The position numbers and the translations under genes were made by a program. The notes under the pieces are model-generated. The model was not told the DNA's origin, searched no databases, and saw nothing but the letters and a program-made list of their open reading frames with translations. Source: an uncultured Gammaproteobacteria bacterium (GTDB taxonomy: Bacteria; Patescibacteriota; Microgenomatia; UBA10105; UBA927). Taken from it: a DNA stretch of 64,000 nt. Below, one piece after another: positions 9,910-38,201 of this stretch. Every line of letters starts with the position of its first letter. The first letter of the stretch is position 1. The stretch spans positions 110,484 to 174,483 of the forward strand of contig CAYGFH010000002.1 in assembly GCA_964349125.1 (NCBI GenBank), written 5' to 3'.

Positions 9910-10416
9910 TCAATCCGCACACACGACATAGTCAGTGGTGGGAACCACGCTGGAGGGGCAAATGGCATCACATCGTAAATGGGACTTTGCGATCTCAGGG
10001 TCAGACACGTTTTCAAGCGTGCTCCACATGCAAAAATCATCCCCGCTGTTTTGCTGTTGATAGTACCACTCATAATCGGAGGGTGGCGGCAATAATTTCA
10101 TGTATACATCCGTAGAACAGGTCGCACCACTTGCAAATACACCGCTGCATTCTGCCAGACAGTCCTGATTCGGAGGTGACCCAGCTTTACATCCGTTAAA
10201 TGTGTTCGTGGCGGTTGTTGCCGGACCGGGATAGATATTGTAATCGTTGTAATAGAGACGGAGAGCATTTTTTACCTGCCGAAACTCGGCTTTAATCTTC
10301 ACATCCTTCGCCCGTTGCCTGGCCCCCAAAAAATTAGAAGATATAAACGCCACAAGGATGGCAATAATGGCAATAACGACGAGTATCTCAATGAGTGTAA
10401 ATCCCAGTTTTTTCAT
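9910..10416 (-). CDS. Type IV pilin / pseudopilin-like protein (prepilin-type N-terminus)
   Basis: MKKLGFTLIEILVVIAIIAILVAFI: class III leader with a G|FTLIE cleavage/methylation motif and Glu at +5. Confidence 0.65.
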   Translation of the reverse strand: MKKLGFTLIEILVVIAIIAILVAFISSNFLGARQRAKDVKIKAEFRQVKNALRLYYNDYNIYPGPATTATNTFNGCKAGSPPNQDCLAECSGVFASGATCSTDVYMKLLPPPSDYEWYYQQQNSGDDFCMWSTLENVSDPEIAKSHLRCDAICPSSVVPTTDYVVCAD

Positions 10417-10422
10417 AGTCTA

Positions 10423-10941
10423 TTATTCTATGGCCACATTTGTGCTGGATATGCCATACGTACACGAGTACGTACCTCCGCAGATCCGCGTCCCGTATCC
10501 ACTTTGATTTATTCCGGCTCCAGTGTCAAGTTCATTCTCAAGACTGGCATATAGTTTAAAATAACTGCCGTCAGATTCATAATAATACGATCTGCCTGAT
10601 TGCGGATCAGAGGGAAGGGCAATCATATACACAGTGGGAGCGCCGGAGGCGGGAGTTTTTTTCCATGGATCTCCCCACTCGCACAACTGCTGTCCATCGA
10701 TGCCACATCCTTTGATTTGATTGGTGGACACGTCTGATTCAGGGTATGCTCCAAAATCGTTATAATAGGTTTCCATAGCCAGGGATATTTGCCTCAGATC
10801 GTTTTTCCGCCGCACATCTCGGGATTTTTTCTGAGAAGAAGTAAAGCTTCCGAGACCGGCAACTATGAGCACGCCGAGGATAGCAATGACCACAAGAAGC
10901 TCCATGAGGGTAAACCCTGCAGATTTTCGAATATTTCTCAT
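10423..10941 (-). CDS. Type IV pilin-like protein
   Basis: I moved the start to the internal Met giving MRNIRKSAGFTLMELLVVIAILGVLIVAGL (prepilin motif). The track start at 10989 adds an unlikely 16-aa extension. Confidence 0.6.
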   Translation of the reverse strand: MRNIRKSAGFTLMELLVVIAILGVLIVAGLGSFTSSQKKSRDVRRKNDLRQISLAMETYYNDFGAYPESDVSTNQIKGCGIDGQQLCEWGDPWKKTPASGAPTVYMIALPSDPQSGRSYYYESDGSYFKLYASLENELDTGAGINQSGYGTRICGGTYSCTYGISSTNVAIE

Positions 10942-10970
10942 ACTATGTAGTTGTATCATATGTAGGACGG

Positions 10971-11633
10971 TTATGGACATCGGTACCACGGATCACCACA
11001 TAACCCCTGACAATTAGGCTCGGCAAACGACATAGGGCACCCAAGTGCCTGCGCGTTACCCACGTCATTGCACTGTCCATCTTTTCGACAGGCATATGAG
11101 CCATTAAATGTGGGGACAACCGTCGGTGTCGGCGTAAACCCATACGCTCCCTCAAAATCCTCATACCCACCACCTGCACTTGTAGGTTCAAATCCGGCAG
11201 ATACACAGTAATTATATCCGGGAGAAAATCCGCAGCCACTGACAGGATCACACCCGATTCTCGTTATATCAGGATCACTGGTGTCTTCAAGCTTTGCACA
11301 GACGCGATATCCCGAGCACACACGAGGTGAACCAGGCACATGGAGGTACGGCAACTTTGTTACAGGGTCACATGGCACCTTTGCAATATACGGACTCAAG
11401 TCTGCCCCATTACAATTTTGGAGAATTCCGGCAGCGGGATAACACTGCGCATCATTGAAGTACTCTTCAAATGTTTTCTGAATTTTTTGCAGATCGGTTT
11501 TTCGCTTTATATCACTCGCCCGCTTTATCTGTGTACCGTAATTCAACAAAACGAGGAAAAGAATAATAAGCAGGATAGAAATCACAATAAGGATTTCCAT
11601 GAGGGTAAAGCCACGTGTGCGGGCACTCGTCAT
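10971..11633 (-). CDS. Type IV pilin-like protein, Cys-rich C-terminal domain
   Basis: MTSARTRGFTLMEILIVISILLIILFLVLL prepilin motif; 12 Cys in the globular part. Confidence 0.65.
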   Translation of the reverse strand: MTSARTRGFTLMEILIVISILLIILFLVLLNYGTQIKRASDIKRKTDLQKIQKTFEEYFNDAQCYPAAGILQNCNGADLSPYIAKVPCDPVTKLPYLHVPGSPRVCSGYRVCAKLEDTSDPDITRIGCDPVSGCGFSPGYNYCVSAGFEPTSAGGGYEDFEGAYGFTPTPTVVPTFNGSYACRKDGQCNDVGNAQALGCPMSFAEPNCQGLCGDPWYRCP

Positions 11634-11975
11634 ATACCCAGTATCGCACAGTCATGACAAAAATCAATCCGGATTTGGGTTCCTACACACAGCGAAAAAC
11701 AGTACTACGGCAATAATGTATGAAAGTATACTAAACTAGATCTAGTATCATGCATATGATGATAGTTTGCATGAATACCCTACCACACGCAGAACTACGG
11801 TATCATGAATCTATTAGATATAGTTATATATTGATATAACTATGTGCGGTTTCTTACTGATATTAAATATATAAATATATAAAAATATAAATCAATATAT
11901 ATAAATCTATTCCTTTATTGATGTCTGTCCTCCACTCTTTACTTACCCCGCTGGCTCTTTTATCATACACGTACC

Positions 11976-13823
11976 ATGCACACAAAGAGACTATCTATCC
12001 AAACATTTTTCACATGGGCGCCAATCGGCATTGTGTCTCTGATCCCATTATTCTTCCTCCCGAGTATTCAGGAATATTATGAGGTGGCAAAGTGGTATGC
12101 CCTTACATTCGTCACACTGCTGGTAAGTGGCGTGTGGACGATTCGATACCTGTGGACCAAACATCCTGTGAAAGTTGAGTTTTCCAATTATACAATAGGA
12201 CTCCTTTCAATGACCGTTGTATCATTCTTGAGTCTTTTTTTCTCCTCCACAAATAGAGTCGAAGCGCTACTTAATCCGTTAGGGCCAATTACATTTGTAT
12301 GCCTTGCCGTACTCACGCTCGTTCTCTCATCCATCCTTGATACACAAACCAAGAATCTCCTGCGGACCTATATATATGGAAGCGCAAGTATCCTTGGACT
12401 CATCGCTATATATCAGCAGATTGGAATAGCGAAGTCTATGTTTCCTGGTGTTACCTATCTCTCTGATCCACTCTGGACGCCGACAGGATCCAGTCTTGCC
12501 ACCATCACGATACTGCTTTCTGTGATTCCTCTGCTTGCCACCGATATTCAGGCACAATTGAAAGAAAAGCGGGAAATGGCCGCATCTCTGTATATTATGA
12601 TGGCGCTACTGATAACAGCAGGTCTTGGGGTCACTATATGGCAATTTTTCCCAAAGATAATAACTACCCTTCTCCCTCTTTCCACAGGATGGACCATAAT
12701 GCTGGATGTTCTCAAATCAGTAAAACAGGCGGCATTTGGCATCGGAGCAGAAAATTTTCTGACAGCATTTAACATGGGCCGGCCCGCATCGTACAACATG
12801 ACTCCTCTTTGGAATATACGATTTACGTCAAATGCCAGTTTCATGCTGCATAGTGTGACTATCTATGGACTATTAGGATTCGCAGCAGGAATTCTTATGC
12901 TCAGAGGGCTCATACCTAAACAGCTCAAACATGCAGAGTCCTTGAGCCTGATCATCTGCATCGTGGCGCTTCTTTTCACACCGCCATCGCTTGCAGTGCT
13001 GTTGACTATCACCATGATCACACTGGTTTCACCTCACGCGCACACTCGGGAGCTGCATCTGCAGCACCTCCACCGCACCTGGGTAAAAGCGATACTGGCG
13101 TTTCTTGTGTTTGGCATACTTGGGTATGGTGTGTTCCTGGTTGGCCGAGAGTATAGAGCACAGCGGGTATTTTACACATCACTTCAGAGGGCAAAAGAAA
13201 ATAATGGGACAGAGACATACAATCTGCAAATTAAGGCGATAGGACTTAACAAATATGTCAGCCTATACCATCTCATTTACAGTCAAACGAACCTAGCACT
13301 GGCAATTTCACTGACCAACGCCATGAATCAGCCTGATGCTGATCAAACGCCGGAGCAAAAAGGTAAAGATCAGCAATTAGTAGCGCAACTCATCCAGCAA
13401 AGTATTAGAGAGGCAAAACTCGCGACAACACTAAATCCGGTGAGCGTACTTGCCTGGGAAAATCTCGCACGCATATATAACCAGCTCATCGACGTAGCAC
13501 AGGGAGCAGATGCATGGACCATCGCATCATATGGCAAGGCCATAGAGCTTGATCCAAATAATCCGATCCTCAGGTTCGAGCTGGGATCAGTGGCCATGAA
13601 GCAGAAAAAATATCCTGAGGCAATCTCATATTTCCAAAAATCAGCAAGTCTCAAACCAAACTATGCAAATGCGTACTATAACCTGGCCTATGCCTACAAA
13701 GAGATGGGAGACGATGCAAAAGCTCTTGAGACATTGAAGCTGACAAAAACCCTCATAGATAAAACATCATCTGATTGGGAAAAAATTACCAAGGATATCG
13801 AATCCCTTGAGCAGAAGAAATAA
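11976..13823 (+). CDS. Wzy_C (O-antigen ligase / O-oligosaccharyltransferase family) polytopic membrane protein with C-terminal TPR repeats
   Basis: About 10 TM helices. The Wzy_C-like periplasmic loop 'GIGAENFLTAFNMG...NASFMLHSVTIYGLLGF' has a His plus a G-rich motif. The C-terminal ~150 aa are TPR-like (AWENLARIYN..., NYANAYYNLAYAYKEMGDDAKALE). Confidence 0.55.
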   Translation: MHTKRLSIQTFFTWAPIGIVSLIPLFFLPSIQEYYEVAKWYALTFVTLLVSGVWTIRYLWTKHPVKVEFSNYTIGLLSMTVVSFLSLFFSSTNRVEALLNPLGPITFVCLAVLTLVLSSILDTQTKNLLRTYIYGSASILGLIAIYQQIGIAKSMFPGVTYLSDPLWTPTGSSLATITILLSVIPLLATDIQAQLKEKREMAASLYIMMALLITAGLGVTIWQFFPKIITTLLPLSTGWTIMLDVLKSVKQAAFGIGAENFLTAFNMGRPASYNMTPLWNIRFTSNASFMLHSVTIYGLLGFAAGILMLRGLIPKQLKHAESLSLIICIVALLFTPPSLAVLLTITMITLVSPHAHTRELHLQHLHRTWVKAILAFLVFGILGYGVFLVGREYRAQRVFYTSLQRAKENNGTETYNLQIKAIGLNKYVSLYHLIYSQTNLALAISLTNAMNQPDADQTPEQKGKDQQLVAQLIQQSIREAKLATTLNPVSVLAWENLARIYNQLIDVAQGADAWTIASYGKAIELDPNNPILRFELGSVAMKQKKYPEAISYFQKSASLKPNYANAYYNLAYAYKEMGDDAKALETLKLTKTLIDKTSSDWEKITKDIESLEQKK

Positions 13824-13840: not shown

Positions 13841-15478
13841 ATGCGTGTTATTCACAGACTCATCCATCTGATAACTGTTCCGATTATACTCTTACACCTG
13901 CTGTTTCTGGTTCAATGGGGAATTTTTATGGGAACTGTACTGCAGCCGTACACCATATCAGTTCCCGGACACACATACGTTCCGCTTCGCGGCCATCTCA
14001 CCTATACCTCACTTATCAGGCAAAGCAGAGATGGCGCATGGAAAACGCTCACAACTCATACAACACGTCCCACACCGGAACTGTATGTGCATACGTTTTT
14101 TGTATTTTTAGGCAAACTGGCGGCGATATTTCACATAGACCCGCCCACTATGTATATGGCTTCCCGGATGGCAGCAGCTGTGATTTTATTCTGGAGTACC
14201 TATTGGTTTGTTCACACACTGCTCCCAAAGCCCATCCATTCTCTTGCGTTGTTTTTTATCCTCGCGCTAGAGCCCGGACCAATGCTTTCTACTATCACCA
14301 CAAGTCTCACCACCTGGAGACCCGCGATATTCAGTTATTATCCGCAAATCGTGAGCCTCAGGCACTTCGGACTTCCCCACCATACGCTGGGAGAAGCGCT
14401 GGGCCTTATCTCAATCACCCTTTTGTTTTTGGCAGTAAAAAAGCCGACGTTCTCCAGACTGGTATGGCTTGGTATAGCAACCTTTCTGGGTGTAAATGTG
14501 CTACCGCCCTACTTTATCATCATCAGCATTTGCCTGCTTTTGCCGTGGGCACTATGGGCTCTCGTACATAGCTCGGTCGCACGGATTGTACTCCCCATGA
14601 GTATCAAAGTAGGGATTATCGCACTGGTATCCCTCTTTCTGAAAGCTCAGATGTCTCAGGGATATCCTGCGAAAGACTTTAATATAGACGAAAAGCGGTG
14701 GGTCACGAACGCGGATGTACTCGTGAGTTACGCCTCTACCCTCATACTGTATATCCCCTTTATCGCACTTCTATGGTCCAGATGCATCGGAGTATGGAGA
14801 ACGCTGGATACCTCAACGAAACGGCTGATTGCTCTTATGAGTGCATGGACTGTACTGCCCGCACTCCTTGTCCCACTATCCAGTTACGCCTGGTTTCCGC
14901 TTGCAAACTTCAGACTCATGGATGGGTATAATTACGCGCCTGCTGGTATACTCGCTGCTATCGGATTTTACTACGGTATGAAAATGATTCGAAACCATGC
15001 GGCGTCACAGTTTATCGCCGGGTTTCTGATGATGGGACTTGTACTGGCAACGGGATTTCTGTCGTATCACTATACGAAGCTTGTTCTCACCGAACAAAGC
15101 TACCCATGGACAAATGTGTATATACACAATGATCATTACAAGGCATTCAAATTCCTTGGTACGGTACCCAACATGAGTGGTCTGATGATCAGCAATCATT
15201 TTGGGGAAATCGCACCGGAATTTGCTCCAGTACGCGCATTTATTGGATCCACTCCTGGTTTTGTGGATTGGGATGAACGGTTTTGGATAGTCGGACGATT
15301 TTATAGTCAGTCATTCACAGAGAGCGATGCCGCTGCGTTGCTGGCACGGGAAGATATCTCGTATGTGTATTATGGTGATGCTGAGAAGAGCATTAACACA
15401 TCAGGCAGACCATTGTATCCGAATTTGTTGACGCCGGTATTTGAGACACCGGTCGTCACAGTATACAAAGTCAAATAG
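13841..15478 (+). CDS. Polytopic membrane protein, putative GT-C-fold glycosyltransferase (paralog family member)
   Basis: More than 10 TM helices with a C-terminal soluble domain ending ...ISYVYYGDAEKS...VVTVYKVK. This architecture is shared with 11 other ORFs in the window. Confidence 0.35.
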   Translation: MRVIHRLIHLITVPIILLHLLFLVQWGIFMGTVLQPYTISVPGHTYVPLRGHLTYTSLIRQSRDGAWKTLTTHTTRPTPELYVHTFFVFLGKLAAIFHIDPPTMYMASRMAAAVILFWSTYWFVHTLLPKPIHSLALFFILALEPGPMLSTITTSLTTWRPAIFSYYPQIVSLRHFGLPHHTLGEALGLISITLLFLAVKKPTFSRLVWLGIATFLGVNVLPPYFIIISICLLLPWALWALVHSSVARIVLPMSIKVGIIALVSLFLKAQMSQGYPAKDFNIDEKRWVTNADVLVSYASTLILYIPFIALLWSRCIGVWRTLDTSTKRLIALMSAWTVLPALLVPLSSYAWFPLANFRLMDGYNYAPAGILAAIGFYYGMKMIRNHAASQFIAGFLMMGLVLATGFLSYHYTKLVLTEQSYPWTNVYIHNDHYKAFKFLGTVPNMSGLMISNHFGEIAPEFAPVRAFIGSTPGFVDWDERFWIVGRFYSQSFTESDAAALLAREDISYVYYGDAEKSINTSGRPLYPNLLTPVFETPVVTVYKVK

Positions 15479-15481: not shown

Positions 15482-16516
15482 CTAGGTATGCCCACGATGC
15501 GTGGTGCGGAAGAATTGGTAGTACACCGCTCCCGCAACAATCACACAGTACAGTATGACCCCTGTTACCAGCGATTTCAGGGTAAACAGAAGCCCTTTTT
15601 CGTGGTATACGAATCGCAAAAATTTACCCAGTAGCACCACATGGATGCAAAATAGAATGGCAGATAGCCAGAGAACAGCAAGTTTTACGAGCTGGGATGG
15701 GATAATAAAAAATAGCATGCTCCCACTGGCAAGTGAAGCCACTGCACCCGCTCCTGTTATACCCGTCATACTTTCCCACAGTGTTGTTGCTACGGGATCA
15801 AACTTATGCCGCTGCCCATAAAGTCGGCTCCAGTAAAAGCTGCGCCAAAAATATTTCCGTGCAACTGGCCAGAAACCTTCAAACTCATGATGCACCCGTA
15901 CGTCAGGCGCAAAAATAATTGCGTATCGTTTTACAATACGGTACGTGATCTCCACATCCTCCATCTGGCGGAATGTTTCATTAAATCCGCCAAGCCGCTT
16001 AAACACATCTGTTTTAATCGCGGCAATGCGTGTACTGAACAGATAATAGTATCCGTCCCGATCTCGCTCATTTATCCAATAACTCCAGTCACGAAGCGCT
16101 TTAAATTGAGGGAAAAAATTATTCGTTTTTTGATGCTTGTCCCACACCCCGGTTAAGGCGGTCAGATCTTCGTCGCCTCTGAATTTCTCTGCAATTTTAC
16201 CCACCGTGTCAGGGTATACCGTCACATCACTGTCTAAAAAGACTAACACTTTCCCTTTCGCGTGTCGTGCCGCGATATTTCGCGCTGCGGCAGGTCCTTT
16301 GTTCACGGGAATTCTATATACCTCAGGAGTGGAGATCCCTGCCTTTTTCCCTAATAGCTGCAACAGGGCTTTGGGTTTCTCCGTATGTGACGCGTCGTCT
16401 CCAATACGCACCTCAAAGTTTGTGTACGAGGACTTTTTCAAACTGGAGAGAAGCACGGCAACATTTCCCCAGGAATTATAGGAAGGAATGACTATAGTGA
16501 GAAACGGCGCTGCCAT
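15482..16516 (-). CDS. Family 2 glycosyltransferase (GT-A) with C-terminal TM helices
   Basis: IVIPSYNSWGNVAVLL...RIGDDAS...VFLDSDV carries the DxD signature; the C-terminal part is hydrophobic. Confidence 0.7.
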   Translation of the reverse strand: MAAPFLTIVIPSYNSWGNVAVLLSSLKKSSYTNFEVRIGDDASHTEKPKALLQLLGKKAGISTPEVYRIPVNKGPAAARNIAARHAKGKVLVFLDSDVTVYPDTVGKIAEKFRGDEDLTALTGVWDKHQKTNNFFPQFKALRDWSYWINERDRDGYYYLFSTRIAAIKTDVFKRLGGFNETFRQMEDVEITYRIVKRYAIIFAPDVRVHHEFEGFWPVARKYFWRSFYWSRLYGQRHKFDPVATTLWESMTGITGAGAVASLASGSMLFFIIPSQLVKLAVLWLSAILFCIHVVLLGKFLRFVYHEKGLLFTLKSLVTGVILYCVIVAGAVYYQFFRTTHRGHT

Positions 16517-16684
16517 CGCACGTATTTGTATACTGTTTAGACAGAAGAGTCAATATGAGCCTGTACGAGTCCGCCCGTCTTTTCCATCTCCGTATAATTA
16601 GTGCGATACGCACGAAGTTATTTTCTGGTAAACACAATCAGATCGTCCTCCCGCTTCGCGGGACTTCGAGGGACAGGCACGAAT

Positions 16685-17617
16685 TTACTTCTTTGCAAAC
16701 ACAATCATATCATCCCAAGGGTTGATCGGGTTCATGATCTTAAAATGGTCAAAAAGTTTTCCAAGAGGTTTTAACATCCATGCTGCCCATGGGAAGTAAT
16801 CCCCTGCTCTTGTGAAAGCAAACGACAAAGGAAATGGTCGTGGAGTATCGGACAGAATTTCTATATGGGAAAATCCCGTTTTTTGCAGAAGTTTTCGCAT
16901 GGTATCGAAATCTAGAAGGACTACATGCTCCGGGTGTCTATACCCAAACCATCGTTTTCCCATGATTTTTTGCCATATTCCTCCCTGATTCGGAGTTGCT
17001 AAAACTAGCAAACCACCCTTTTTGAGTAATTTATATACTCTATTCATCATACGCAGAGGATCACGCTCGTGTTCAATAATCTGAAATGCACTGATCACAT
17101 CAAATGACGAATCCTTCAATTGTTTGACTGTATAGACAGTTCCCTGATATGCACGCAGGTTTTGTTTCAAGCAGTACGAGACAGCATCTCTGGAAATATC
17201 TATACCCTCTACCCTGAATCCTTCCTTTTTTGCTTCTTCCAACAAAACCCCCATAGCGCAGCCGATGTCAAGAAATCGCAATCCGCGAATCGTGAATCGC
17301 GAATCGTGAATCGCATCAATTTTTCGATGTTTTACGGTTAACGGTTTACGTTTAGCGATTAACGAAGATATTTCACCAACCTTCTTCTTAAAGTACGCGT
17401 GGTGAACAGCCAGTTGGTCCATATACGGATCAAAATGCTCAAGATCCTCATGATACAGGGATGCGATTTCCTTAGCTGTGGGCATCGGGACAACCTGCAC
17501 TAGGCCACAGTGCCTGCATTTTCCCATATTCCATCTTTTATGATGTGCAAATAGGATTGTAAACGAACCTGACCGGCACAGTACGCATTTCATAACCAGG
17601 TAATAATACCATACCAT
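16685..17617 (-). CDS. Class I SAM-dependent methyltransferase with N-terminal Cys4 zinc-ribbon
   Basis: Motif I LDIGCAMGVLLEE. N-terminal CVLC...CRHC. It contains an in-frame heptamer-repeat-encoded segment (KRKPLTVKHRKIDAIHDSRFTIRGLRF) immediately before motif I. Confidence 0.65.
   Translation of the reverse strand: MVWYYYLVMKCVLCRSGSFTILFAHHKRWNMGKCRHCGLVQVVPMPTAKEIASLYHEDLEHFDPYMDQLAVHHAYFKKKVGEISSLIAKRKPLTVKHRKIDAIHDSRFTIRGLRFLDIGCAMGVLLEEAKKEGFRVEGIDISRDAVSYCLKQNLRAYQGTVYTVKQLKDSSFDVISAFQIIEHERDPLRMMNRVYKLLKKGGLLVLATPNQGGIWQKIMGKRWFGYRHPEHVVLLDFDTMRKLLQKTGFSHIEILSDTPRPFPLSFAFTRAGDYFPWAAWMLKPLGKLFDHFKIMNPINPWDDMIVFAKK
17284..17364. repeat. Two heptamer arrays, (GCGAATC/GTGAATC)x4 and ACGGTTA-ACGGTTT-ACGTTTA-GCGATTA, inside the methyltransferase CDS
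   Basis: Read directly; in-frame coding. Confidence 0.8.
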
Positions 17618-17699
17618 TCGGCCATGGGAATCATGCTACTTACGAGGTTTTTTTGAGCACCAGTTTATTTTTTCGCACTCTTCAAAATACAGGCTATTT

Positions 17700-19328
17700 T
17701 TGATATCGTATGGTATTATGAGGCGGATTGGTCGTTCTCTCATAGTGTTTTTGACCCTGGCAATCACGTTAATTGCTATAAATCTGCAGTATCGCACCCA
17801 TAAAACTGCGCTCACAATCCCCGGCACGCTCAATACGTACGCAATGGGTAACACAGAGGATTACCACCAGTACATGTATATCATCAAACGCGGGATGGAA
17901 GGGCATCTCCTCTATCACAACGCGTATTCGGAGGAAAGTATTCCGGATGTACTGCTGCAACCCTTCTACCATATCGCTGGCGCCATACTGGCACCACTTC
18001 GTTTGTCGCCGTACGATGTGTATTTTTTGCTTCATCTCGTGTCACTGAGCATCCTACTTTTTTATATATACCGTCTTATCTGCAGCGTACTCAAAACTGA
18101 AACCGGTAGGACTGTAGCGTTCTTGCTGTTTATTTCCGCCACCGGTTTCTGGTCACTTACGTCTGCATATCCCTTTACGGCCGTGAGACAGTATCTGCCG
18201 GACTATAATTTTGATTTATTTATCAAGTATCATGTCATGCAGCCACATCATGACATTGCCACGGCGCTCTATATCATTGCCATCATGGCACTCTCAGAGC
18301 GTGTGTACACGTGGAGACGCATAGTCGTGGGAGGATTCTCCGCCGCGTTACTCGGATTTATTCACCCGTACATCCAGTTATTTTTATTTTTCACTCTTAT
18401 TGTTGAACACATAGTCAGAATTTTTCTTATGAGACGGGAATATTGGAAAGAGGCATTTCGCTATGTAGCCCCAATCCTTATTGCCATACCCACAGCAGCC
18501 GTCACGTACTATACGCTCGTGCATGTACTTCAGTTTGAGATAGGTCTCAAAGGTATTGTCACCCATCTACCCAGGCAACAGACTTTTTGGTCATATACGG
18601 TGTCTCTGGGTCCACTGCTGTTCACTTCCCTATGTTGTGTGTTCCACATCAAAAAAATTGTAGAGATACCCATTCTCCGCTTTATGGCAATTTGGGCATA
18701 TCTTCCCATCATTCTGTTTTTTTTGCCAGATTATCAAATACCCATCAATACTTGGCGATTGTTTCAGACGTATCAGCATATACCAATGGCTATCCTCACC
18801 GCCTATTCACTGGTGTCTTGGGCAAAAACCTCCCGCCTGTTCGCCCTCAGTATCCCGGTGATTGCGGCAGGCTTCCTCATCTATGGGGGAGGTATGTATG
18901 CGTACGCCTATAAAGAAGCCACACAACCAGCCAATAGACTCGTCTGGACTGTAGACGTTCCGCATGTGGTCCTCTCGTTGTTTGAATACCTCAACACAGC
19001 GAGCGAGCCCGATAGTGTCGTGTTAGCTGGCGGCCAATTGTCAAACCTAATTCCTGAATTCACCCATAATCGTGTCATTATCGGACACAACGGGGATAAC
19101 CGTAATTTTCTTGCCAAACAGGCTGACATAAGCGGTTTTCTTATGGGAAATGTACCACTGTCTGAAGTCAGGAATTTTTTATCCCGATACCGTGTATCGT
19201 ACATTATCTTTGGTATAGATGCGCCATACTTCGCCAACACTCCCTATACAGCATTACCGTTTCTTAAGGAAGTGTACGTGGAGCCAAAAACAGGGTTTTC
19301 AGTGGTGCAGGTGCTCACTGACAAATGA
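17700..19328 (+). CDS. Polytopic membrane protein, putative GT-C-fold glycosyltransferase (paralog)
   Basis: About 12 TM helices. N-terminal loop motif 'EDYHQYMYIIKRGMEGH' resembles the D-Y-x2-Y-x3-I-x-QG motif of the other paralogs. C-terminal soluble domain ...VSYIIFGIDAPYF... Confidence 0.35.
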   Translation: MISYGIMRRIGRSLIVFLTLAITLIAINLQYRTHKTALTIPGTLNTYAMGNTEDYHQYMYIIKRGMEGHLLYHNAYSEESIPDVLLQPFYHIAGAILAPLRLSPYDVYFLLHLVSLSILLFYIYRLICSVLKTETGRTVAFLLFISATGFWSLTSAYPFTAVRQYLPDYNFDLFIKYHVMQPHHDIATALYIIAIMALSERVYTWRRIVVGGFSAALLGFIHPYIQLFLFFTLIVEHIVRIFLMRREYWKEAFRYVAPILIAIPTAAVTYYTLVHVLQFEIGLKGIVTHLPRQQTFWSYTVSLGPLLFTSLCCVFHIKKIVEIPILRFMAIWAYLPIILFFLPDYQIPINTWRLFQTYQHIPMAILTAYSLVSWAKTSRLFALSIPVIAAGFLIYGGGMYAYAYKEATQPANRLVWTVDVPHVVLSLFEYLNTASEPDSVVLAGGQLSNLIPEFTHNRVIIGHNGDNRNFLAKQADISGFLMGNVPLSEVRNFLSRYRVSYIIFGIDAPYFANTPYTALPFLKEVYVEPKTGFSVVQVLTDK

Positions 19329-20609
19329 CTCAATTGTCCGAACCACATACTTGAGCATTTGTTTGGTCAGTCCAGGGTGCACGCCAATCCAAAACGCATC
19401 ATTCATGAGTTTGTCTGAGCTTTTTAAATCCCCTACTTTGCGTATACGCGGATGATTCACGTACGCAGGGTGGCGGGTCAAATTTCCTCCAAAAATCGCA
19501 CGGGTCGCGATTTTTTTCTCATCCAGATAATTGACGAGATCGACTTTGGTAAACGGTGCCCCATCTCGTACAACCAGAGGGAACCCGAACCAGCTGGGAT
19601 TAGCGCCGGGCAATGCCTCCGGCAATATAAAGTATTGTTCTAATGTTTTAAAATATTGAAACAAATAGGCAAAATTATCTCGTCTGGCTTTGATAAACTT
19701 CGGTAGTTTTTTCATTTGCGCAAGCCCTATGGAAGCCTGGATATCTGTAAGCTTCAGGTTATAGCCGATTTGCGAATAGGTGTATTTGTGATCATACCCG
19801 TACGGCAACTCTCCCAATTTCCATTTGAATCGCATCCCGCAGGTGTTGTCTTTTCCCGTGTCGCACCAGCAGTCACGACCCCAATCCCGAAACTGTCGTA
19901 TTGCTTTATTTAGCCGTGAGTCGCTCGTCACTATAGCTCCTCCCTCACCCATCGTAATCTGATGAGCAGGATAGAAACTGAATGTTGCGATGTGTCCGAA
20001 TGTTCCTGCTAATCGGCCGTTATACTCCCCTCCCAATGCATCGCAGCAATCTTCAATAAACCACAGGTTATATTTGGCAACCAATGCCATGATTTCATCC
20101 ATAGGCATGAGGTTCCCCAGCGTATGGGCCATCATAATTACTTTTGTTTTGGGTGTTATCGCCTGCTCCAGATCCGCAGGATTCACATTTTTTGTGACGA
20201 TGTCATTATCCAAAAGCACCAGAGTGCAGTTGTTCTGGATCGTCGGGTTGATTGTTGTCGGGAAACCGGTTCCCACACTGATGACTTCATCTCCCGGCTG
20301 TAGAGCCCTATCACGAAAAACTTTGGATGTGAGAGCAGTGAGTGCCACTAAATTTGCGCTAGAGCCGGAATTTACCAGAGACACAAATTTCACACCAAGA
20401 AATTTTGAAAATTCTTTTTCAAATTCCAAAGCAAACCGCCCTTCAGTCCACCACCCATCTAAAACCGCCTCAATGCCGTATAAAAGCTCGCTCTCATCAA
20501 ACACTTTACCTGATACTGGCACGCTAGCTTCCCCTGCCACAAATTTCTTTTTGGCAAAGTTTTTTTTGTAGTGGGCAAGAATCTGTTTTTGCAGCGTTTT
20601 TGAAATCAT
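19299..20609 (-). CDS. ddhC: CDP-6-deoxy-D-glycero-L-threo-4-hexulose 3-dehydratase (E1; DegT-fold PMP/[2Fe-2S] enzyme)
   Basis: DegT/DnrJ fold, but the active-site Lys is replaced by His (FSFYPAHQITMGEGG versus FSFYPGKNLG in the 38202 paralog). It has a C-x-C-x7-C cluster (RDCWCDTGKDNTC). The 436-aa length matches RfbH/AscC. Confidence 0.75.
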   Translation of the reverse strand: MISKTLQKQILAHYKKNFAKKKFVAGEASVPVSGKVFDESELLYGIEAVLDGWWTEGRFALEFEKEFSKFLGVKFVSLVNSGSSANLVALTALTSKVFRDRALQPGDEVISVGTGFPTTINPTIQNNCTLVLLDNDIVTKNVNPADLEQAITPKTKVIMMAHTLGNLMPMDEIMALVAKYNLWFIEDCCDALGGEYNGRLAGTFGHIATFSFYPAHQITMGEGGAIVTSDSRLNKAIRQFRDWGRDCWCDTGKDNTCGMRFKWKLGELPYGYDHKYTYSQIGYNLKLTDIQASIGLAQMKKLPKFIKARRDNFAYLFQYFKTLEQYFILPEALPGANPSWFGFPLVVRDGAPFTKVDLVNYLDEKKIATRAIFGGNLTRHPAYVNHPRIRKVGDLKSSDKLMNDAFWIGVHPGLTKQMLKYVVRTIESFVSEHLHH

Positions 20610-20677
20610 ACCAGCATTATAAACACTTCTAATCTATCAATCTATACTTGAGCAAATACATACTATAAGATATAATC

Positions 20678-21823
20678 TTGTGCATGTCTATTTCCGAGCA
20701 TGCGGAAACACGCAGAGAACCTGCACAAGCAAAACAAATTCCAATACACATCGGTTTTTTTGAACACGATACTGGTTCTCGTGCCGATAATAGTGTGGTA
20801 TTTTCAAAATTAGAATTGGCAGCGACAGAAGTAATGCGAAATAATAATGGCACTGTTGCACTTTTATTGGAGTCTCCCGAGTTTACTGAAGAACTTGCAC
20901 ATTCCTTACATAACATACATTCTGCCGGTTTCAGCTATAAAGAATCGTTCATTCTTCAGTCGTATTCTCATTCTCTACTACGTGAACATGCCTATAAGCC
21001 AAATACCACTGATAGAATACGATGGACATATATTAACCCTCAGAAAAACCCGATAAAAAAACTGATACTGCAATACTATCTTCCCACAGCTGCGGAACAT
21101 TTTATTAGAATATCTGATCACTTAACTACAGATTGGAATCAATTACTGATATTTCTGGATAAGCTTGAATCTAAGTTCGGAAGCAGATTTACAGTGATAT
21201 TTGAATCATATTCTGAATCTAAGCTATCTAATCTGAAACGATACATGTCAGAAATGGATACATGCATGTCGAGTGGAGATATAAAAGGCGCTGCAGACGC
21301 ACTTTTCAATCAAATGTGGAGTATTCATCAGGAAACGGTAACAAGAGACCCTAAAGCGGAAAGTCAAATTGAAGAGCTTGCGCATAAAACAGATGTAGCT
21401 ATAGTTCTTTCGCTGTTCGGAGCTATACATCAAATGATAGCAGAGTCGCTTTTTTCAAAAGGCTTTGCGGTATTTCCACATGTAGTCGAAGATGGAGAGC
21501 AATACGCGAATTTGCTATTCGGAATAGTCAGGCAAATCAGGAGAGGTGAAAATCCGTCATATTTTCTTCTTAAACGGGCTGCGATTTTATCATGGTATTA
21601 CCGACATGTATTTGCTTCCTGGTCACTATTGCCGATTGATATTTCTGATTCTATAAGTCAAAAACATGCAATTGAAAGAACTCAAATACTATCATCTATA
21701 CTCTCTTCACGTGAGGATTTAGAGGAGGTGGAAAAACAGTTAAAAACGGATCCAGAGCATAATACCTTTAGCTTTTTGAATAAACTCACAAGAAGAGAAG
21801 TTGTACTTTTTGCCGAAAAGTAA
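20678..21823 (+). CDS. Hypothetical cytoplasmic protein
   Basis: 381-aa ORF with no TM segment and no recognisable motif. The likely start is the ATG two codons in (MSISEHAE). Confidence 0.35.
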   Translation: MCMSISEHAETRREPAQAKQIPIHIGFFEHDTGSRADNSVVFSKLELAATEVMRNNNGTVALLLESPEFTEELAHSLHNIHSAGFSYKESFILQSYSHSLLREHAYKPNTTDRIRWTYINPQKNPIKKLILQYYLPTAAEHFIRISDHLTTDWNQLLIFLDKLESKFGSRFTVIFESYSESKLSNLKRYMSEMDTCMSSGDIKGAADALFNQMWSIHQETVTRDPKAESQIEELAHKTDVAIVLSLFGAIHQMIAESLFSKGFAVFPHVVEDGEQYANLLFGIVRQIRRGENPSYFLLKRAAILSWYYRHVFASWSLLPIDISDSISQKHAIERTQILSSILSSREDLEEVEKQLKTDPEHNTFSFLNKLTRREVVLFAEK

Positions 21824-22020
21824 TTCGACAATCATCACTTTCAACATGTTCATGTCTCTGTCGAAAAACTCAACGTTTTTAAACACGAAATATAAACGAC
21901 AGATCGCTGACGAAGTAGCAGGAAAATTATAAGAAATATACTCTAGTTTCTACACTGAGTGGTTTATGATCGATATTACCTGTAATGATACGAATAAAAT
22001 TTCATTTCTAAATGCAATCA

Positions 22021-23208
22021 TCAGGTAAGAACCTTTTTCAATACCATGCAGACAAATTCCACATCGCGCTCGGTGATATCAAACGCACTGGGTAAATTAA
22101 ACCCATCATTTGCTACTTTGGTAGCGACAGGATTTGCAAAGCGAGCCGTGTACATCGGGAACAAACTCATGCGTGGAAACGCCTCACGGGCATGAATATT
22201 GTATGTTTTGAGCTTCGCCACCAGTGCGTTTCTCGAGATTTTTTTCGTATTGAGCATCACTGCAGGATATGCGTAATTTGAGCGCATGCCTTCCTGCTCT
22301 CTCAAGAGGGTAATTTCTTCCATATCAGAGAGTCTCTCCCAATACCATTCAAAAATCTTGCGTTTCATGGCAACCAACTCTTCTATTCGTTCCACCTGGG
22401 CAAGAGCCAAAGAAGCGGTCACATTTGCCATCTGGTACTCAAAGCCCATCGTGTCACACCAGAAGTTAGCCTTACTGTCAGTGCGCCCCATATTGCTGAG
22501 GAGATATGCCTGATCAAGCATCTTTTTGTTATTTGTGAGAAACATTCCGCCTTCACCACTTGCCGCGATTTTCGCGCCGTGGAACGATACACATCCCACA
22601 TCCCCAATGCTTCCGACCTTTTTACCCTTATAGATACTCCCCAATGAGGGCGCGGCATCCTCTATCACTTTCAGCTTATATTTTCTGGCGAGCTTCATGA
22701 TCGCATCCATGTTTGCAGGCATGCCAAAGGTGTGAACGAGCATGATCCCTTTTGTCTTTTTCGTGATGGCGTTCTCTATCGCCTTGGGGTCTATACACCA
22801 CGTGTCAGGCTCTATATCAACAAATACTGGAGTGGCTCCTGCCCATGCTATGACGTGTGCGGTCGCAGCCCAACTGAAGTCAGTCACGATGACCTCATCA
22901 CCCTTCCCAAAACCACAGACGAGACATGCCAGATGCATCGCGTGTGTTGCACAAAACTGCGCAAGGGAATATTTTGTTCCAACATATTCTGCCATCTCGT
23001 GTTCCAGTTTTTTTACGTGCTTATCAAATGTTTGGTAAAAACCGTTTTTCACACCGTCAACAACATACGTCAGTTCTTTTTTTGTAATAGATGGACCCGC
23101 GAAACTGATTTTCTTCTTACTCGGTCTTAACAAATCAGATCTTTTTGATTTGTTATAGAGCGAGTTATCCCGTGAAGCGGGGTTACTCTGTTGTTTTTTT
23201 GTTTTCAT
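22021..23208 (-). CDS. DegT/DnrJ/EryC1/StrS-family PLP-dependent sugar aminotransferase
   Basis: FGKGDEVIVTDFSW...; VSFHGAKIAASGEGG carries the Lys; 395 aa with a basic N-terminal extension. Confidence 0.75.
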   Translation of the reverse strand: MKTKKQQSNPASRDNSLYNKSKRSDLLRPSKKKISFAGPSITKKELTYVVDGVKNGFYQTFDKHVKKLEHEMAEYVGTKYSLAQFCATHAMHLACLVCGFGKGDEVIVTDFSWAATAHVIAWAGATPVFVDIEPDTWCIDPKAIENAITKKTKGIMLVHTFGMPANMDAIMKLARKYKLKVIEDAAPSLGSIYKGKKVGSIGDVGCVSFHGAKIAASGEGGMFLTNNKKMLDQAYLLSNMGRTDSKANFWCDTMGFEYQMANVTASLALAQVERIEELVAMKRKIFEWYWERLSDMEEITLLREQEGMRSNYAYPAVMLNTKKISRNALVAKLKTYNIHAREAFPRMSLFPMYTARFANPVATKVANDGFNLPSAFDITERDVEFVCMVLKKVLT

Positions 23209-23209
23209 T

Positions 23210-23854
23210 TTAATTCCCTTCTCCTGTCATATAGACATCAAATCGTTTTATACGTTTGGTATATCCGTCAGGTGCTATAGTCCACTCTCCTCCATCCGGC
23301 GTCTTTGTGTACACCAATGGGATCCGTTTTGTTTCTACAAATCCCAATCGGGTATATAGAGCAAGTGCACGGGTATTATCTGACGTAGTCTGGAGCGTAT
23401 AGGACGTAAGTCCCAGTGTTTCTCTCCCCCAGCGCATCATCAGTTGTATCGCCTCGGCCATCATGCCTTTTCTTCCGACCCGTCCTCTCACTATATTATC
23501 GATTTCGCAACAGTTGTTATCGAAATCGAACCGGTAGAGGCCGACATGTCCTCTATATGTACCATGAATATCTATCATAAACAAGAGTCGGTCAGGTTCA
23601 TTAAGCACCCTGTTTTGCAGCCATGATGCAGTGCGTTTCATAGAGACTGGAAACTGGGCCGGAAACCAGTACTCATGCTTTTTCCTCCATCTGCCCAGAA
23701 GTCTCACAATACCCGTATCGTGTGCGCATTGGGTCGTCAATAAACGCAGTATAAGAGGATTTTTAGACTCACGAGATACCAGATCCATGGAGCCAAACGG
23801 GGCTTGTTTAAGTCGTGCTATCGTGGAAAGAACCTGTGTTTTTTTTGCGTTCAT
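23210..23854 (-). CDS. GNAT-family N-acetyltransferase (WecD-like sugar N-acetyltransferase candidate)
   Basis: RGRVGRKGMMAEAIQLMMRWGRETLGLTSYTLQTTSDNTRALALYTRLGFVE is a GNAT motif A/B. It lies 1 bp from the upstream aminotransferase. Confidence 0.55.
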   Translation of the reverse strand: MNAKKTQVLSTIARLKQAPFGSMDLVSRESKNPLILRLLTTQCAHDTGIVRLLGRWRKKHEYWFPAQFPVSMKRTASWLQNRVLNEPDRLLFMIDIHGTYRGHVGLYRFDFDNNCCEIDNIVRGRVGRKGMMAEAIQLMMRWGRETLGLTSYTLQTTSDNTRALALYTRLGFVETKRIPLVYTKTPDGGEWTIAPDGYTKRIKRFDVYMTGEGN

Positions 23855-23864
23855 TCGTAACAGT

Positions 23865-25643
23865 TCAAATTTCGGTCATTCGAGCAAATTCTTCTCTGGG
23901 CAAAAATGGGAATAAATCTTCATACGGTTTGGAAACCATTCGTCCGTCAGCAGCTTTCTCTGATGATACCCGCGGAATGATAAGTTGCCATTCTGGAGAG
24001 AGCACATCTATGACCATCGGCCCCTCAAATGTCATAATGCTCTTTAGTTTTCTATTCAACTCATTCGGCGTGGATATACGAACTGCCTTGATGCCATACG
24101 CCTCAGCAATTTTTATGGAGTCTGGTATATACAATCCGGTTTTGGGACTTTCTCCAAGTAGTCTTCCTTCCATATGAGTTTTTTGCGTATGGCGGATAAG
24201 TAAATACCCGTTATTGTTAATCACAAATAGTTTTATATTCAGCTTATTTTGTTTGAGTGTTGCCAGCTCCTGCAAATTCATCTGGAGACACCCGTCTCCT
24301 GTAATCACCAACGTCTGACCGTTTGGACGTGCCATAGCCGCACCTATGGATGCGGGCCAATAGCCCATGGTCGATATACCGCCGGTGGTGATAAACCGTT
24401 GCCCTTTCTTAATTTTCCATGTCTGACACACGACATGGAATGGAGAGCTCGTATCCACAACGATGGTGTCATGTTTTGAAGCGGCCTCTGATAACTTGTC
24501 AGTAAACAGATAGGAATTTACTTTTTTTTCTTTCGCGTACTGCGGGAGATTCATCGGATATGCTTTTTTCCACACACCGATCCGTGATACCCAGTGAGAG
24601 TACGAATGAAGTGACACTCCTGCTATCCCGCTTGAGAGTGCTGACAAAAACTGTTTCGCATCCGATTGAATTGTCAGTGACGGCGTAATTCCCGGTTTAT
24701 CCAATTCCTTCTGATCCACGTCCACGATTACCTTGAATGCCCGCCTACCCCAATCAGAAGCATCGTATCCAACTACCCCAGGGTCAAGTCTTGCTCCGAC
24801 TGCGATAATCAGATCAGCCATCTGGACGGCAAAGTTTGCCGGCCTGTCACCGTACAAACCCGGCCTGCCGACAAACTGATTGGTATAGGAGTCGACCAGA
24901 TCAATGCCGAGCCGTGTGGTAGCAACGGGCATGCGCGTTTTTTTTAGAAACTGTTCCATTTCCCGCACTGCGCCTGAGAGGAATATCCCATGACCCGCTA
25001 TAAACAGTGGACGCTTGGCATTACAAAGAAGCGTCACGATACGCTCGATATCACTTGCCTGTGTCATGCACGATTCTCTGCACTCTGACTCAGAAAATTG
25101 CTTCATGCCTTTTTTGGGCATTTGCATTCTCTGGATATCCAGTGGTACATCAATCCAAACAGGACCCGGTCTTCCATGAGTCGCAACATGCCATGCTTTT
25201 TCCAGGTGATACTCTACACTCAGAGGGTCATCGATCGACACATAGTATTTTGTCACACTGCTGGCCAAGGGTTTCATGTGGATGCCCTGAAGTCCGTATT
25301 GCCGTATCCCTGTTTTTTCCATGTACGCGGCATTACCGCTTGATGATTGGCCCGCTATGACGATCATTGGAGCGCTGTCCACATAGGCTCCGACTACACC
25401 GGTAAGTGCATTCACACCCGCTGGGCCTGCTGTCACCATGGCAACACCCAAGTTGCCCGAAATTCTTCCATATCCTTCCGCAGCCATAGCCGCTGCCTGC
25501 TCATGATGATGGAAAATCGGACGTATTTTCTTAGACTGATAGATTGCGTCGTTTAGAAACATCGCCTGCCCGCCGGGAACCATAAACACGGTATCCACCC
25601 GTTTTTTTTCTATGTACGACACGATGTACTCTGCAATATTCAT
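23865..25643 (-). CDS. Thiamine-diphosphate-dependent enzyme, acetolactate-synthase/YerE-like
   Basis: N-terminal Pyr domain (VFMVPGGQAMFLNDAIYQ...). C-terminal ThDP motif GDGCLQMNLQELATL...NNNGY. 592 aa. Confidence 0.75.
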   Translation of the reverse strand: MNIAEYIVSYIEKKRVDTVFMVPGGQAMFLNDAIYQSKKIRPIFHHHEQAAAMAAEGYGRISGNLGVAMVTAGPAGVNALTGVVGAYVDSAPMIVIAGQSSSGNAAYMEKTGIRQYGLQGIHMKPLASSVTKYYVSIDDPLSVEYHLEKAWHVATHGRPGPVWIDVPLDIQRMQMPKKGMKQFSESECRESCMTQASDIERIVTLLCNAKRPLFIAGHGIFLSGAVREMEQFLKKTRMPVATTRLGIDLVDSYTNQFVGRPGLYGDRPANFAVQMADLIIAVGARLDPGVVGYDASDWGRRAFKVIVDVDQKELDKPGITPSLTIQSDAKQFLSALSSGIAGVSLHSYSHWVSRIGVWKKAYPMNLPQYAKEKKVNSYLFTDKLSEAASKHDTIVVDTSSPFHVVCQTWKIKKGQRFITTGGISTMGYWPASIGAAMARPNGQTLVITGDGCLQMNLQELATLKQNKLNIKLFVINNNGYLLIRHTQKTHMEGRLLGESPKTGLYIPDSIKIAEAYGIKAVRISTPNELNRKLKSIMTFEGPMVIDVLSPEWQLIIPRVSSEKAADGRMVSKPYEDLFPFLPREEFARMTEI

Positions 25644-25648
25644 ATGGA

Positions 25649-26692: not shown

Positions 26693-26705
26693 ATATACTA
26701 TTTTA

Positions 26706-27590: not shown

Positions 27591-27625
27591 GATACCGTAC
27601 GGTGTTGACCGGCACTGGATAAGGG

Positions 27626-28570: not shown

Positions 28571-28576
28571 GCTATT

Positions 28577-28604
28577 CGATTCGCGGTTAACGGTTAACGG
28601 TTAA
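28577..28604. repeat. Heptamer array CGATTCG (CGGTTAA)x3 spanning the epimerase stop codon
   Basis: Read directly. Its reverse complement encodes ...ALTVNR-TAA. Confidence 0.85.
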
Positions 28605-29555: not shown

Positions 29556-29674
29556 GGTGTGTGAAAACGGGGTGGGAGGATTCCCGCTATACGGTTGCTG
29601 CGGTCTGCATCAACTCAGACTGACTATAGCACAAAAACAGAGAACTACAACAGGGTTCGTGGCGCGGGCACCTG

Positions 29675-30457: not shown

Positions 30458-30524
30458 ACTTCTCGTAATTATAGTTGTACGTTCATGAATTGCAAGTGGA
30501 GTAACTCCAGCGAGTGCCGGTTCT

Positions 30525-31034: not shown

Positions 31035-31036
31035 AC

Positions 31037-31522: not shown

Positions 31523-31525
31523 ATG

Positions 31526-33981: not shown

Positions 33982-34030
33982 ATGCATCGATACTATTTCA
34001 TGATTCAACAATACCCTTTACGCGTTACGA

Positions 34031-35701: not shown

Positions 35702-35920
35702 CTTACTCAGATTTGCAGCTCTTCTCAGTGAAAAATCTGACTCGCCTCGCTGTTATGTAGCGAAGCGGGTTAGATGGGTCTATACCCAAAAACTAATGTT
35801 GCAAATCTGCGTTTTTGCGGTATACACATACTATCAAAGCACCTTACACAGTCAACACCAAAATACTTTTTTTGAGACTCTCCAAGTAGGCGCGCTTGGA
35901 GGTATAATGAGCTACCAGGT

Positions 35921-36622: not shown

Positions 36623-36636
36623 TCGCGAACGCAAAA

Positions 36637-36692
36637 CGATTAACGATTAACGATTAACGATTAACGATTAACGATTAACGATTAACGATTAA
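36637..36692. repeat. Perfect tandem heptanucleotide array (CGATTAA)x8, flanked upstream by degenerate CGNNNAN heptamers from 36603
   Basis: Direct count: 56 nt = 8 x 7. It lies 25 bp upstream of the ATG at 36718. Confidence 0.9.
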
Positions 36693-36717
36693 CGTATGGT
36701 ATCATACCCTCACAATT

Positions 36718-37725: not shown

Positions 37726-37735
37726 TAGTACCGCT

Positions 37736-38197: not shown

Positions 38198-38201
38198 TCG
38201 C

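Follow-up and report, generated by a model that had tools for sequence, protein, structure and literature searches.

A divergent Wzy_C-like membrane protein with a tetratricopeptide repeat domain is conserved beside prepilin genes in Microgenomates

Introduction

Which of its neighbours does a large membrane protein serve when its gene stands between three prepilin genes and a long run of sugar genes? The question is raised by a locus within a 64,000-nucleotide stretch of contig CAYGFH010000002.1 (assembly GCA_964349125.1; hereafter the window), which is placed in the Microgenomatia of the Patescibacteriota, within the candidate phyla radiation (CPR). Here, three tandem prepilin genes face the divergently oriented gene of a 615-residue protein that joins a polytopic membrane domain to a C-terminal tetratricopeptide repeat (TPR) domain. 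An initial annotation, read from the sequence alone, took the locus for a candidate pilin O-glycosylation system built around an enzyme of the PilO/TfpO/PglL type. Host attachment and DNA uptake in ultrasmall CPR/Patescibacteria are believed to depend centrally on type IV pili. Our results point to a pilin-linked and very divergent member of the Wzy_C/WaaL superfamily, which may act as a dedicated pilin-modifying enzyme.

Results

Pilins and the membrane protein gene are linked from both directions

The linkage was sampled from both sides of the gene pair. On the side of the membrane protein, 80 genome loci were retrieved with an alignment of its family, and their flanks were searched with a hidden Markov model (HMM) of the prepilin N-terminus. 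Forty of the 41 prepilin open reading frames (ORFs) lie at most 3.5 kb from a family gene, a span of 450 kb in total, and a single one falls in the remaining 539 kb (binomial p = 5e-13). Where at least 1.5 kb of sequence was present on both sides, a pilin stands within 1.5 kb of the family gene in 17 of 57 loci. On the pilin side, metagenome contigs were scanned with an alignment of the C-terminal domain of pilin 3, from which the generic N-terminal helix had been removed. Loci were kept if each flank of the pilin cluster extended over at least 1.5 kb, and the family gene was called by an HMM of the membrane domain. That gene adjoins the pilin cluster in 28 of these 32 metagenomic loci, being divergent and upstream in 22, co-directional and downstream of the trio in five and convergent in one. 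When the pilins are dereplicated by clustering at 80% identity the count is 25 of 28, and statistics from both directions thus rule out chance adjacency. Exactly three pilins in the order 3-2-1 are found in 27 of the 32 loci, the orthologues of prepilins 2 and 1 of the window coming second and third. The four loci that have the trio and no family gene were examined, and no recognisable substitute transferase was found there.

The linkage is structured by clade, as defined by clustering of the family sequences. The divergent trio is present in seven of nine members of the clade to which the window belongs. In the Roizmanbacteria-type clade all nine members instead carry a single pilin-3-like gene, which in eight cases lies 49-155 nt upstream on the same strand. 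In other clades the pilin lies ~950 nt upstream, or the pilins are found downstream. Pilin 3 is the pilin that is paired most consistently with the family gene. In loci that retain only a pilin-3-like gene and the family gene, the neighbours are a LysM-M23 peptidase, a glutamate dehydrogenase and a thioredoxin-reductase-like gene. Pilus machinery was not found beside the same-strand pairs, whose neighbours are housekeeping genes. As the pair persists in such surroundings, the constant partner of the membrane protein is the pilin and not the glycan island that follows it in the window. The four genes very probably constitute one functional module, which is conserved across Microgenomates when approached from either side, and the link that the initial annotation had drawn between the pilins and the membrane protein is upheld to this extent.

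One Amesbacteria-type locus without pilins (L083, 1984-3731) has its family gene a few kilobases from ComEC-like (Competence) and ComEA-like (SLBB, HHH_3) genes for DNA uptake, and the same family gene adjoins an IS200-type transposase.

Table 1. Coordinates of the module and of the adjoining region in the window
Feature	Position	Strand	Description
Prepilin 1	9910..10416	-	168 aa, leader MKKLG|FTLIEIL, 8 Cys, C-terminus ...VCAD
Prepilin 2	10423..10989	-	ORF to GTG 10989, likely start ATG 10941 or 10959; ...SAG|FTLMELL, 4 Cys
Prepilin 3	10971..11633	-	220 aa, leader MTSARTRG|FTLMEIL, 14-Cys globular part
Divergent intergenic region	11634..11975		342 bp, 32.7% GC vs 44.2% for the window
615-aa protein, membrane domain (aa 1-400)	11976..13175	+	11 predicted transmembrane (TM) helices, divergent Wzy_C/WaaL-like fold
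615-aa protein, TM11 extension and TPR domain	13176..13823	+	TPR aa ~409-615, ~five helix pairs
545-aa polytopic membrane protein	13841..15478	+	18 nt after the stop of the TPR gene; no Pfam match
Glycan-biosynthesis/transfer region	15482..55751		assigned from Pfam scans, TM counts and paralogy

Three prepilins, the third rich in cysteine

All three prepilin ORFs exceed the gathering score of 21.2 bits for Pfam N_methyl (29.4, 31.5 and 22.6 bits for prepilins 1, 2 and 3) and pass the TIGR02532 cut-off. Each has a short basic leader, the motif G|FTL(I/M)E(I/L)L and then a hydrophobic helix, which are features of a class III signal peptide. Prepilin 1 also gives a partial GspG-like match and prepilin 2 a weak T2SSG match. 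The ORF as listed for prepilin 2 overlaps the end of prepilin 3, and either of the ATG codons given in Table 1 would result in a more usual leader. The initial description of three tandem prepilin genes, with the motifs FTLIEIL, FTLMELL and FTLMEIL and a Cys-rich third member, therefore holds. A six-frame motif scan found no further prepilin-motif ORF in the 64-kb window, and Pfam scans, which covered 46 ORFs of the window, found no prepilin peptidase and no assembly ATPase or platform protein encoded there.

Mature pilin 3 has 14 Cys among 213 residues and carries a Pro/Thr linker, TPTPTVVPT (aa 167-175, nt 11109-11135), ahead of a C-terminal Cys knot. Its orthologues (n = 21) share about ten conserved Cys and the motifs PCDP and GYNYG(V/I)SS. 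In many of them the globular part and the Cys knot are likewise joined by a linker of variable length that is rich in Pro/Thr or Ser/Pro, ranging from the nine residues of the window to more than 40 (L078, L071). Among 80 metagenomic pilin-3 orthologues, 33 have a 12-residue window with at least nine Pro, Thr or Ser. Linkers rich in Pro/Thr or Ser/Pro are typical targets of O-glycosylation, and the composition of the pilin-3 linker is no more than suggestive of such a role. A metagenomic contig with a relative of pilin 3 and no gene of the membrane protein family nearby also carries ten tandem pilin-like ORFs on one strand (L163, 3295-9773).

The divergent spacer between prepilin 3 and the membrane protein gene presumably holds the promoters of both transcription units. 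Its size and its low GC content are as the initial annotation had described them. The core (11800-11920) has 17% GC and consists largely of ATATAAAT-like repeats. Sigma-70-like matches lie at 11895-11866 on the minus strand and at 11938-11966 on the plus strand; promoter and terminator scans of the spacer gave matches no commoner than in shuffled sequence.

A probable, very divergent member of the Wzy_C/WaaL superfamily

The C-terminal part of the 615-residue protein matches the Pfam families TPR_17, TPR_11, TPR_1, TPR_2 and TPR_19 above their cut-offs, in agreement with the TPR domain noted initially, and forms helices from residues 411 to 614 in the AlphaFold2 (AF2) model. A scan against NCBIfam returned TPR models only. 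The membrane domain is modelled with a mean confidence (pLDDT) of 89.6. TM segments were taken from the helices of the model and their sidedness from the positive-inside count, Lys and Arg making up nine of 44 residues in the inside loops versus ten of 125 in the outside loops. The predicted topology therefore has 11 TM helices with the N-terminus inside, and places the TPR domain and all conserved residues outside.

Members of this family fall into 147 clusters in a protein search and occur in at least 522 stretches among contigs of one genome per species. They belong almost only to Gottesman-, Ames-, Roizman-, Woese-, Collier-, Shapiro- and Beckwithbacteria and to other Patescibacteria metagenome-assembled genomes. 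Among loci L002-L081, many contigs bear the title uncultured Gammaproteobacteria or Pseudomonadales and a few that of Micrarchaeota, Bathyarchaeia or Vitreimonas, which are probably taxonomic mislabels or contaminated bins. This distribution places the window in a CPR bacterium of Microgenomates type. The identical 615-residue protein is present on a Logan contig from run ERR3094293.

Homology to the Wzy_C superfamily is supported, though only by profile-profile comparison. PF04932 (Wzy_C) is matched by eight of 17 family members, two of which pass its gathering score (39.0 and 33.0 vs 31.7 bits), and in distant members residues ~170-305 align with nearly the whole of that profile. A bridging profile, A7, was built from homologues of a canonical Wzy_C protein of a related locus (L058), all of which contain PF04932. 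In hhalign the family profile aligns with A7 at 96.5% (E 8.5e-10, 254 columns), so that the GxGxxNF (G255/G257) and GxxG (G298/G301) motifs match up, and A7 in turn aligns with a profile of WaaL at 93.5% (E 2.3e-7). A model of the membrane domain alone was also submitted to Foldseek; the full-length model had returned mostly TPR proteins. The top match in the PDB is WaaL (7tpg) with a probability of 0.94, all others reaching 0.18 or less, and the GT-C structures Pmt4 and oligosaccharyltransferase (OST) give E ~1.7 and a probability of 0.08. The protein thus appears to be a genuine, if very divergent, member of the Wzy_C/WaaL superfamily. A direct relationship to WaaL cannot be claimed, as hhalign against a single E. 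coli WaaL and against a 23-sequence profile gave E 0.12-0.13, a level also reached by unrelated polytopic window proteins used as noise controls (E 0.1-0.5). Searches of PDB sequences returned no WaaL and only chance matches to TolB with the membrane-domain profile of the family, and only chance matches to PsaF with a single distant member.

In L058 the gene of the canonical Wzy_C protein (2106-3755; 56 bits, R/R/H intact) runs divergently from a pilin gene, which in turn stands ahead of the Wzy_C-like/TPR gene of that locus. The L058 pilin is thus flanked by two different members of the Wzy_C superfamily.

Residue conservation was assessed in an alignment of 81 family members, numbered as in the window protein. 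G255, G257, N274 and G298 are invariant in all 81, followed by W279 (80), G171 (78), K247, F283 and G301 (77 each), F265 (76), N93 (75) and W239 and P336 (74 each). Basic or acidic character is kept at R/K269 (80), R/K391 (77) and E/D244 (76), with R282 in 66 members and K39 in 72 of 74. P169 is also among the conserved outer-face positions of the membrane domain. Outer loop 1 has a single E/D/N at position 33 and no DDX motif.

Discussion

We tentatively favour a model, to which we would give slightly less than an even chance, in which a pilin-dedicated enzyme transfers a lipid-linked glycan to pilin at the outer face of the membrane with its TPR domain holding the acceptor. The three prepilins would be exported and processed by pilus machinery encoded elsewhere, and the 615-residue protein would be their dedicated modifying enzyme. 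At the outer leaflet, a re-wired set of residues in its membrane domain (K39, K247, R/K269, N274, W279, R282, R/K391 and E/D244) may bind a glycan carried on polyprenyl-(pyro)phosphate, and the extracytoplasmic TPR domain may hold the protein acceptor. Pilin 3, the Cys-rich one, would be the likeliest acceptor, modified before or during pilus assembly either in its Pro/Thr-rich linker or in Ser/Thr patches close by. The glycan in this genome could be supplied by the adjacent 40-kb island. Glycan transfer is suggested because of the superfamily relationship, the conservation at the predicted outer face and the precedents of PglL, tfpO/tfpM, TfpW and WsfB; the transfer itself, its donor, the acceptor site and the part played by the TPR domain are elements that we infer.

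The precedents resemble the module in different respects. PglL homologues adjoin pilins in 21 of 31 species (PMC3643930), tfpO and tfpM stand next to their pilins (PMC9829042) as does tfpW (10.1101/2020.04.19.049825), and a C-terminal TPR motif is reported for WsfB and PglL (PMC2943079). TfpO (PilO) and TfpM of Pseudomonas, Acinetobacter and Moraxellaceae are likewise polytopic Wzy_C-superfamily proteins encoded beside a cognate pilin. Their gene order, pilin then enzyme on the same strand, recurs in relatives such as L046, L058 and L066 with gaps of 49-151 nt, whereas the gene of the window is divergent and not downstream of its pilins. They have no TPR domain and keep an essential His (H286 in TfpM), in contrast to the window protein, which has a TPR domain and no triad (PMC9829042). 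TfpO and TfpM also glycosylate a C-terminal Ser/Thr (PMC9829042), whereas the pilins of the window end in ...VCAD, ...VAIE and ...YRCP for prepilins 1 to 3, the CAD end being conserved among orthologues. An acceptor site of the TfpO/TfpM type is therefore excluded, as no pilin of the window ends in Ser or Thr.

PglL and PglS, general or ComP-specific enzymes, share with the 615-residue protein the superfamily, frequent adjacency to pilins (PMC3643930) and, for PglL, a TPR motif (PMC2943079). They differ in that the equivalents of R224/R298/H349 are not conserved here and PglL_A is undetected in the window protein and its relatives. TfpW, the pilin arabinosyltransferase of P. aeruginosa group IV, is by its published description nearly the same in overall architecture and context. 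It has ~620-650 residues, an inside N-terminus, 11 TM helices, a large TPR domain at the extracytoplasmic C-terminus and a pilin-adjacent gene (10.1101/2020.04.19.049825), all of which are seen or predicted for the 615-residue protein. TfpW was modelled after the GT-C enzyme ArnT, which has a DDX motif, whereas the 615-residue protein aligns with Wzy_C and finds its best fold match in WaaL. WsfB and WsaB of Paenibacillus and Geobacillus are described as Wzy_C enzymes that act on a surface protein in cells without an outer membrane, WsfB with a TPR motif in addition (PMC2943079). They modify a surface-layer (S-layer) protein and are encoded within S-layer glycan clusters. WaaL itself (7TPG) offers the best structural match and a remote profile relationship through the bridging Wzy_C profile, and differs in its 12 TM helices, its lack of a TPR domain, its lipid A-core acceptor and its R215/R288/H338 triad. 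A conventional lipid A-core ligase can be dismissed on the absence of the triad and the near restriction of the family to Patescibacteria/Microgenomates records. To our knowledge, Patescibacteria/Microgenomates lack lipopolysaccharide.

A number of observations weigh against pilin-dedicated glycan transfer. About 70% of the sampled family genes have no pilin within 1.5 kb, and none of the 19 loci of the Amesbacteria-type clade has a linked pilin. The Pro/Thr linker is missing from many pilin-3 orthologues, and any of the GT2/GT-C modules of the island could glycosylate that linker instead. PF04932 has no match in the 615-residue protein, even when residues 1-470 are searched at E<=10, and Pfam detected PglL_A (PF15864) neither in the window protein nor in the eight relatives scanned. 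The superposition of the membrane domain on WaaL 7tpg is poor, with a TM-score of 0.34. The R/R/H triad is reported to be functionally important in WaaL and shared by PglL, and TfpM to require the His of the triad (PMC3643930, PMC9829042). In A7 the invariant R188/R255/H298 align with R215/R288/H338 of WaaL, and through this bridge the triad columns of the window protein are S173/L235/A287. The His column is placed at the same position by two weaker alignments, and column 287 holds S, R, A or G across the 81 members. No His is conserved elsewhere in the family; the only His-rich column, 292, has 34 His, 24 Gln and 15 Thr among the 81. No Wzx flippase, initiating phosphoglycosyltransferase or glycosyltransferase of families GT4 or GT1 was found among the 46 window ORFs, so that an en bloc route through an undecaprenyl-pyrophosphate-linked oligosaccharide is undocumented within the window. 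Bac_transf, Glycos_transf_4 and Polysacc_synt gave no match in the same scans, which left several polytopic ORFs without an assignment, and such genes could lie elsewhere in the genome. For Patescibacteria, pilin glycosylation is so far a prediction only, and a 2024 study of Saccharibacteria pili leaves it at that (PMC11623550).

These observations bear unevenly on the initial annotation. Its "Wzy_C" label survives as remote homology through the A7 bridge, and fails as a direct match to PF04932. The assignment to the PilO/TfpO/PglL type is not borne out, there being no direct Wzy_C or PglL_A match, no triad and no Wzx or phosphoglycosyltransferase in the window. From the proposed pilin O-glycosylation locus a pilin-linked Wzy_C-like enzyme can be retained, whereas an O-oligosaccharyltransferase of the PglL/TfpO type is a function that we can at most infer.

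The loss of the triad keeps three alternatives in play: a general enzyme, an enzyme that both builds and attaches the glycan, and an accessory factor. A general envelope glycan enzyme would be a housekeeping ligase of Microgenomates, or would carry out general protein O-glycosylation, placing lipid-linked glycans on a range of surface proteins or on a wall polymer, with pilins as one substrate or none and their adjacency reflecting co-regulation of surface structures. We consider this unlikely, while allowing that the very wide distribution of the family (the at least 522 stretches come from species-representative genomes) and the majority of sampled genes without a pilin nearby would be expected of it. 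In the clade of the window PMT_2-like, GT2, methyltransferase and DegT genes are the more constant neighbours, and PglL of Neisseria is general and unlinked to pilE (PMC3643930). What such an enzyme would leave unexplained is the view from pilin 3, where linkage is nearly obligate in the dereplicated loci and persists through three types of rearrangement and even where every glycan neighbour is gone; no conserved protein partner besides the pilins was observed. A Wzy-type polymerase or TfpW-like enzyme, rated as rather improbable, would instead polymerise or extend and attach a glycan at the outer face, possibly directly on the pilin, from the undecaprenyl-phosphate (Und-P)-sugar donors to which the GT2 and GT-C content of the island points, and would not pass on a preassembled oligosaccharide en bloc. 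Pfam Wzy_C covers polymerases too, and the island, besides lacking a detectable Wzx or phosphoglycosyltransferase, holds four GT2 genes and small proteins of three to four TM helices that are typical of Und-P-sugar routes. TfpW, with 11 TM helices and an external TPR domain, both polymerises and transfers (10.1101/2020.04.19.049825), and the acidic residue or Asn kept in outer loop 1 (E/D/N33) would also be in keeping with this. Such an enzyme is disfavoured by the Foldseek ranking, in which GT-C proteins of the ArnT/PMT/OST type fall far below WaaL (0.08 vs 0.94), and no chain-length regulator was found.

The protein may also not be an enzyme at all. A triad-less Wzy_C-like scaffold with a TPR domain could serve the Cys-rich pilin set as a membrane chaperone, a docking platform or an assembly or anchoring factor, and we judge this distinctly improbable. 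It would account for the absence of the R/R/H triad and of any conserved His and for a pilin linkage that stays tight even without glycan genes, and TPR domains do mediate protein-protein contacts. A non-catalytic role is difficult to reconcile with at least 15 polar, aromatic and Gly residues of the outer face that are at least 90% conserved at ~30% identity, a pattern typical of a ligand-binding or catalytic site, and with four to five conserved basic residues available for pyrophosphate binding. Beyond these alternatives we speculate, at low probability, on a hitherto undescribed class of pilin-processing enzyme specific to CPR/Microgenomates, in which the Wzy_C fold has discarded the triad in favour of a new outer-face site and a TPR clamp, co-evolving with the three pilins. 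Its chemistry could depart from classical en bloc transfer, either building the glycan on the pilin or joining the pilin to a lipid-linked wall precursor.

In the literature covered by our searches, neither the 615-residue protein family nor pilin glycosylation in Microgenomates was found to be described. New here is a pilin-adjacent Wzy_C-superfamily protein, putatively an enzyme, with a fused and predicted external TPR domain and a replaced active-site set, conserved with three pilins in a CPR lineage. The conserved pairing of a Cys-rich pilin with a Wzy_C-like/TPR protein across Microgenomates offers a concrete and testable handle on pilin modification in these organisms. The loss of the triad in a strongly constrained family bears on the mechanism of WaaL/PglL-type enzymes, and also on whether O-linking transferases useful for glycoengineering exist outside Proteobacteria.

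Surroundings of the module

As had been proposed initially, the module leads into a glycan island, whose genes extend from about 13.8 to 55.7 kb. The gene that directly follows the TPR gene is probably co-transcribed with it, and its product is a candidate GT-C-type glycosyltransferase; a PMT_2 protein occupies the corresponding position in the related locus L084. It is one of six paralogous polytopic proteins with 7-11 TM helices and no Pfam match (13841-15478, 17700-19328, 34031-35701, 44518-46350, 46695-48488 and 49452-51047), which probably represent a lineage-specific expansion of GT-C-type transferases. A second polytopic pair is PMT_2-like (31526-33076 and 42853-44475). Four GT2 genes begin at 15482, 27626, 35921 and 42128, two of them encoding proteins of ~230 aa and two proteins with C-terminal TM helices. 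The remainder of the island comprises a methyltransferase, three DegT aminotransferases, a GNAT and a hexapeptide acetyltransferase, two epimerase/dehydratases, an RmlD-like reductase, an NTP-transferase, a GFO/IDH/MocA oxidoreductase, a thiamine pyrophosphate (TPP) enzyme, an aldolase and an acetaldehyde dehydrogenase, together with PMT_2-like and YfhO-like proteins and many unannotated polytopic proteins. By its content the island looks like a set of polyprenyl-phosphate-sugar synthase (GT2) and GT-C modules.

Within it, the genes of the TPP-dependent enzyme, of the aldolase, which is HMGL-like and has a DmpG communication domain, and of the acetaldehyde dehydrogenase stand together beside DegT and GNAT genes (23865-27590). 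This grouping is unusual, and its product might be a branched or acylated amino sugar. Towards the end of the island, a glycan-binding NPCBM domain forms the C-terminus of a protein with ~8 TM helices (51171-53126), and an 846-aa YfhO-like membrane protein follows (53211-55751).

On the other side of the pilins, a membrane-anchored protein that weakly matches cohesin (7153-8127, minus strand) is encoded between two secreted proteins whose C-termini resemble dockerin (5681-7129, which also has an F5/8 type C domain, and 8031-9881). The arrangement (5681-9881) points to a cohesin-dockerin pair for surface display just upstream of the pilins. Beyond the island, an ORF of 2643 aa on the minus strand (56007-63938) has no Pfam match. 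Giant ORFs of 1000-2600 aa also stand beside the pilin module in related loci (L006 222-7952, L029 272-5482, L071 30-4649 and L136 85-4806). L029 further encodes phage tail-fibre (Gp34_trimer) and Peptidase_S74 domains at 5558-8014, and a K1-lyase C-terminal domain is found in L115 at 7257-10184.

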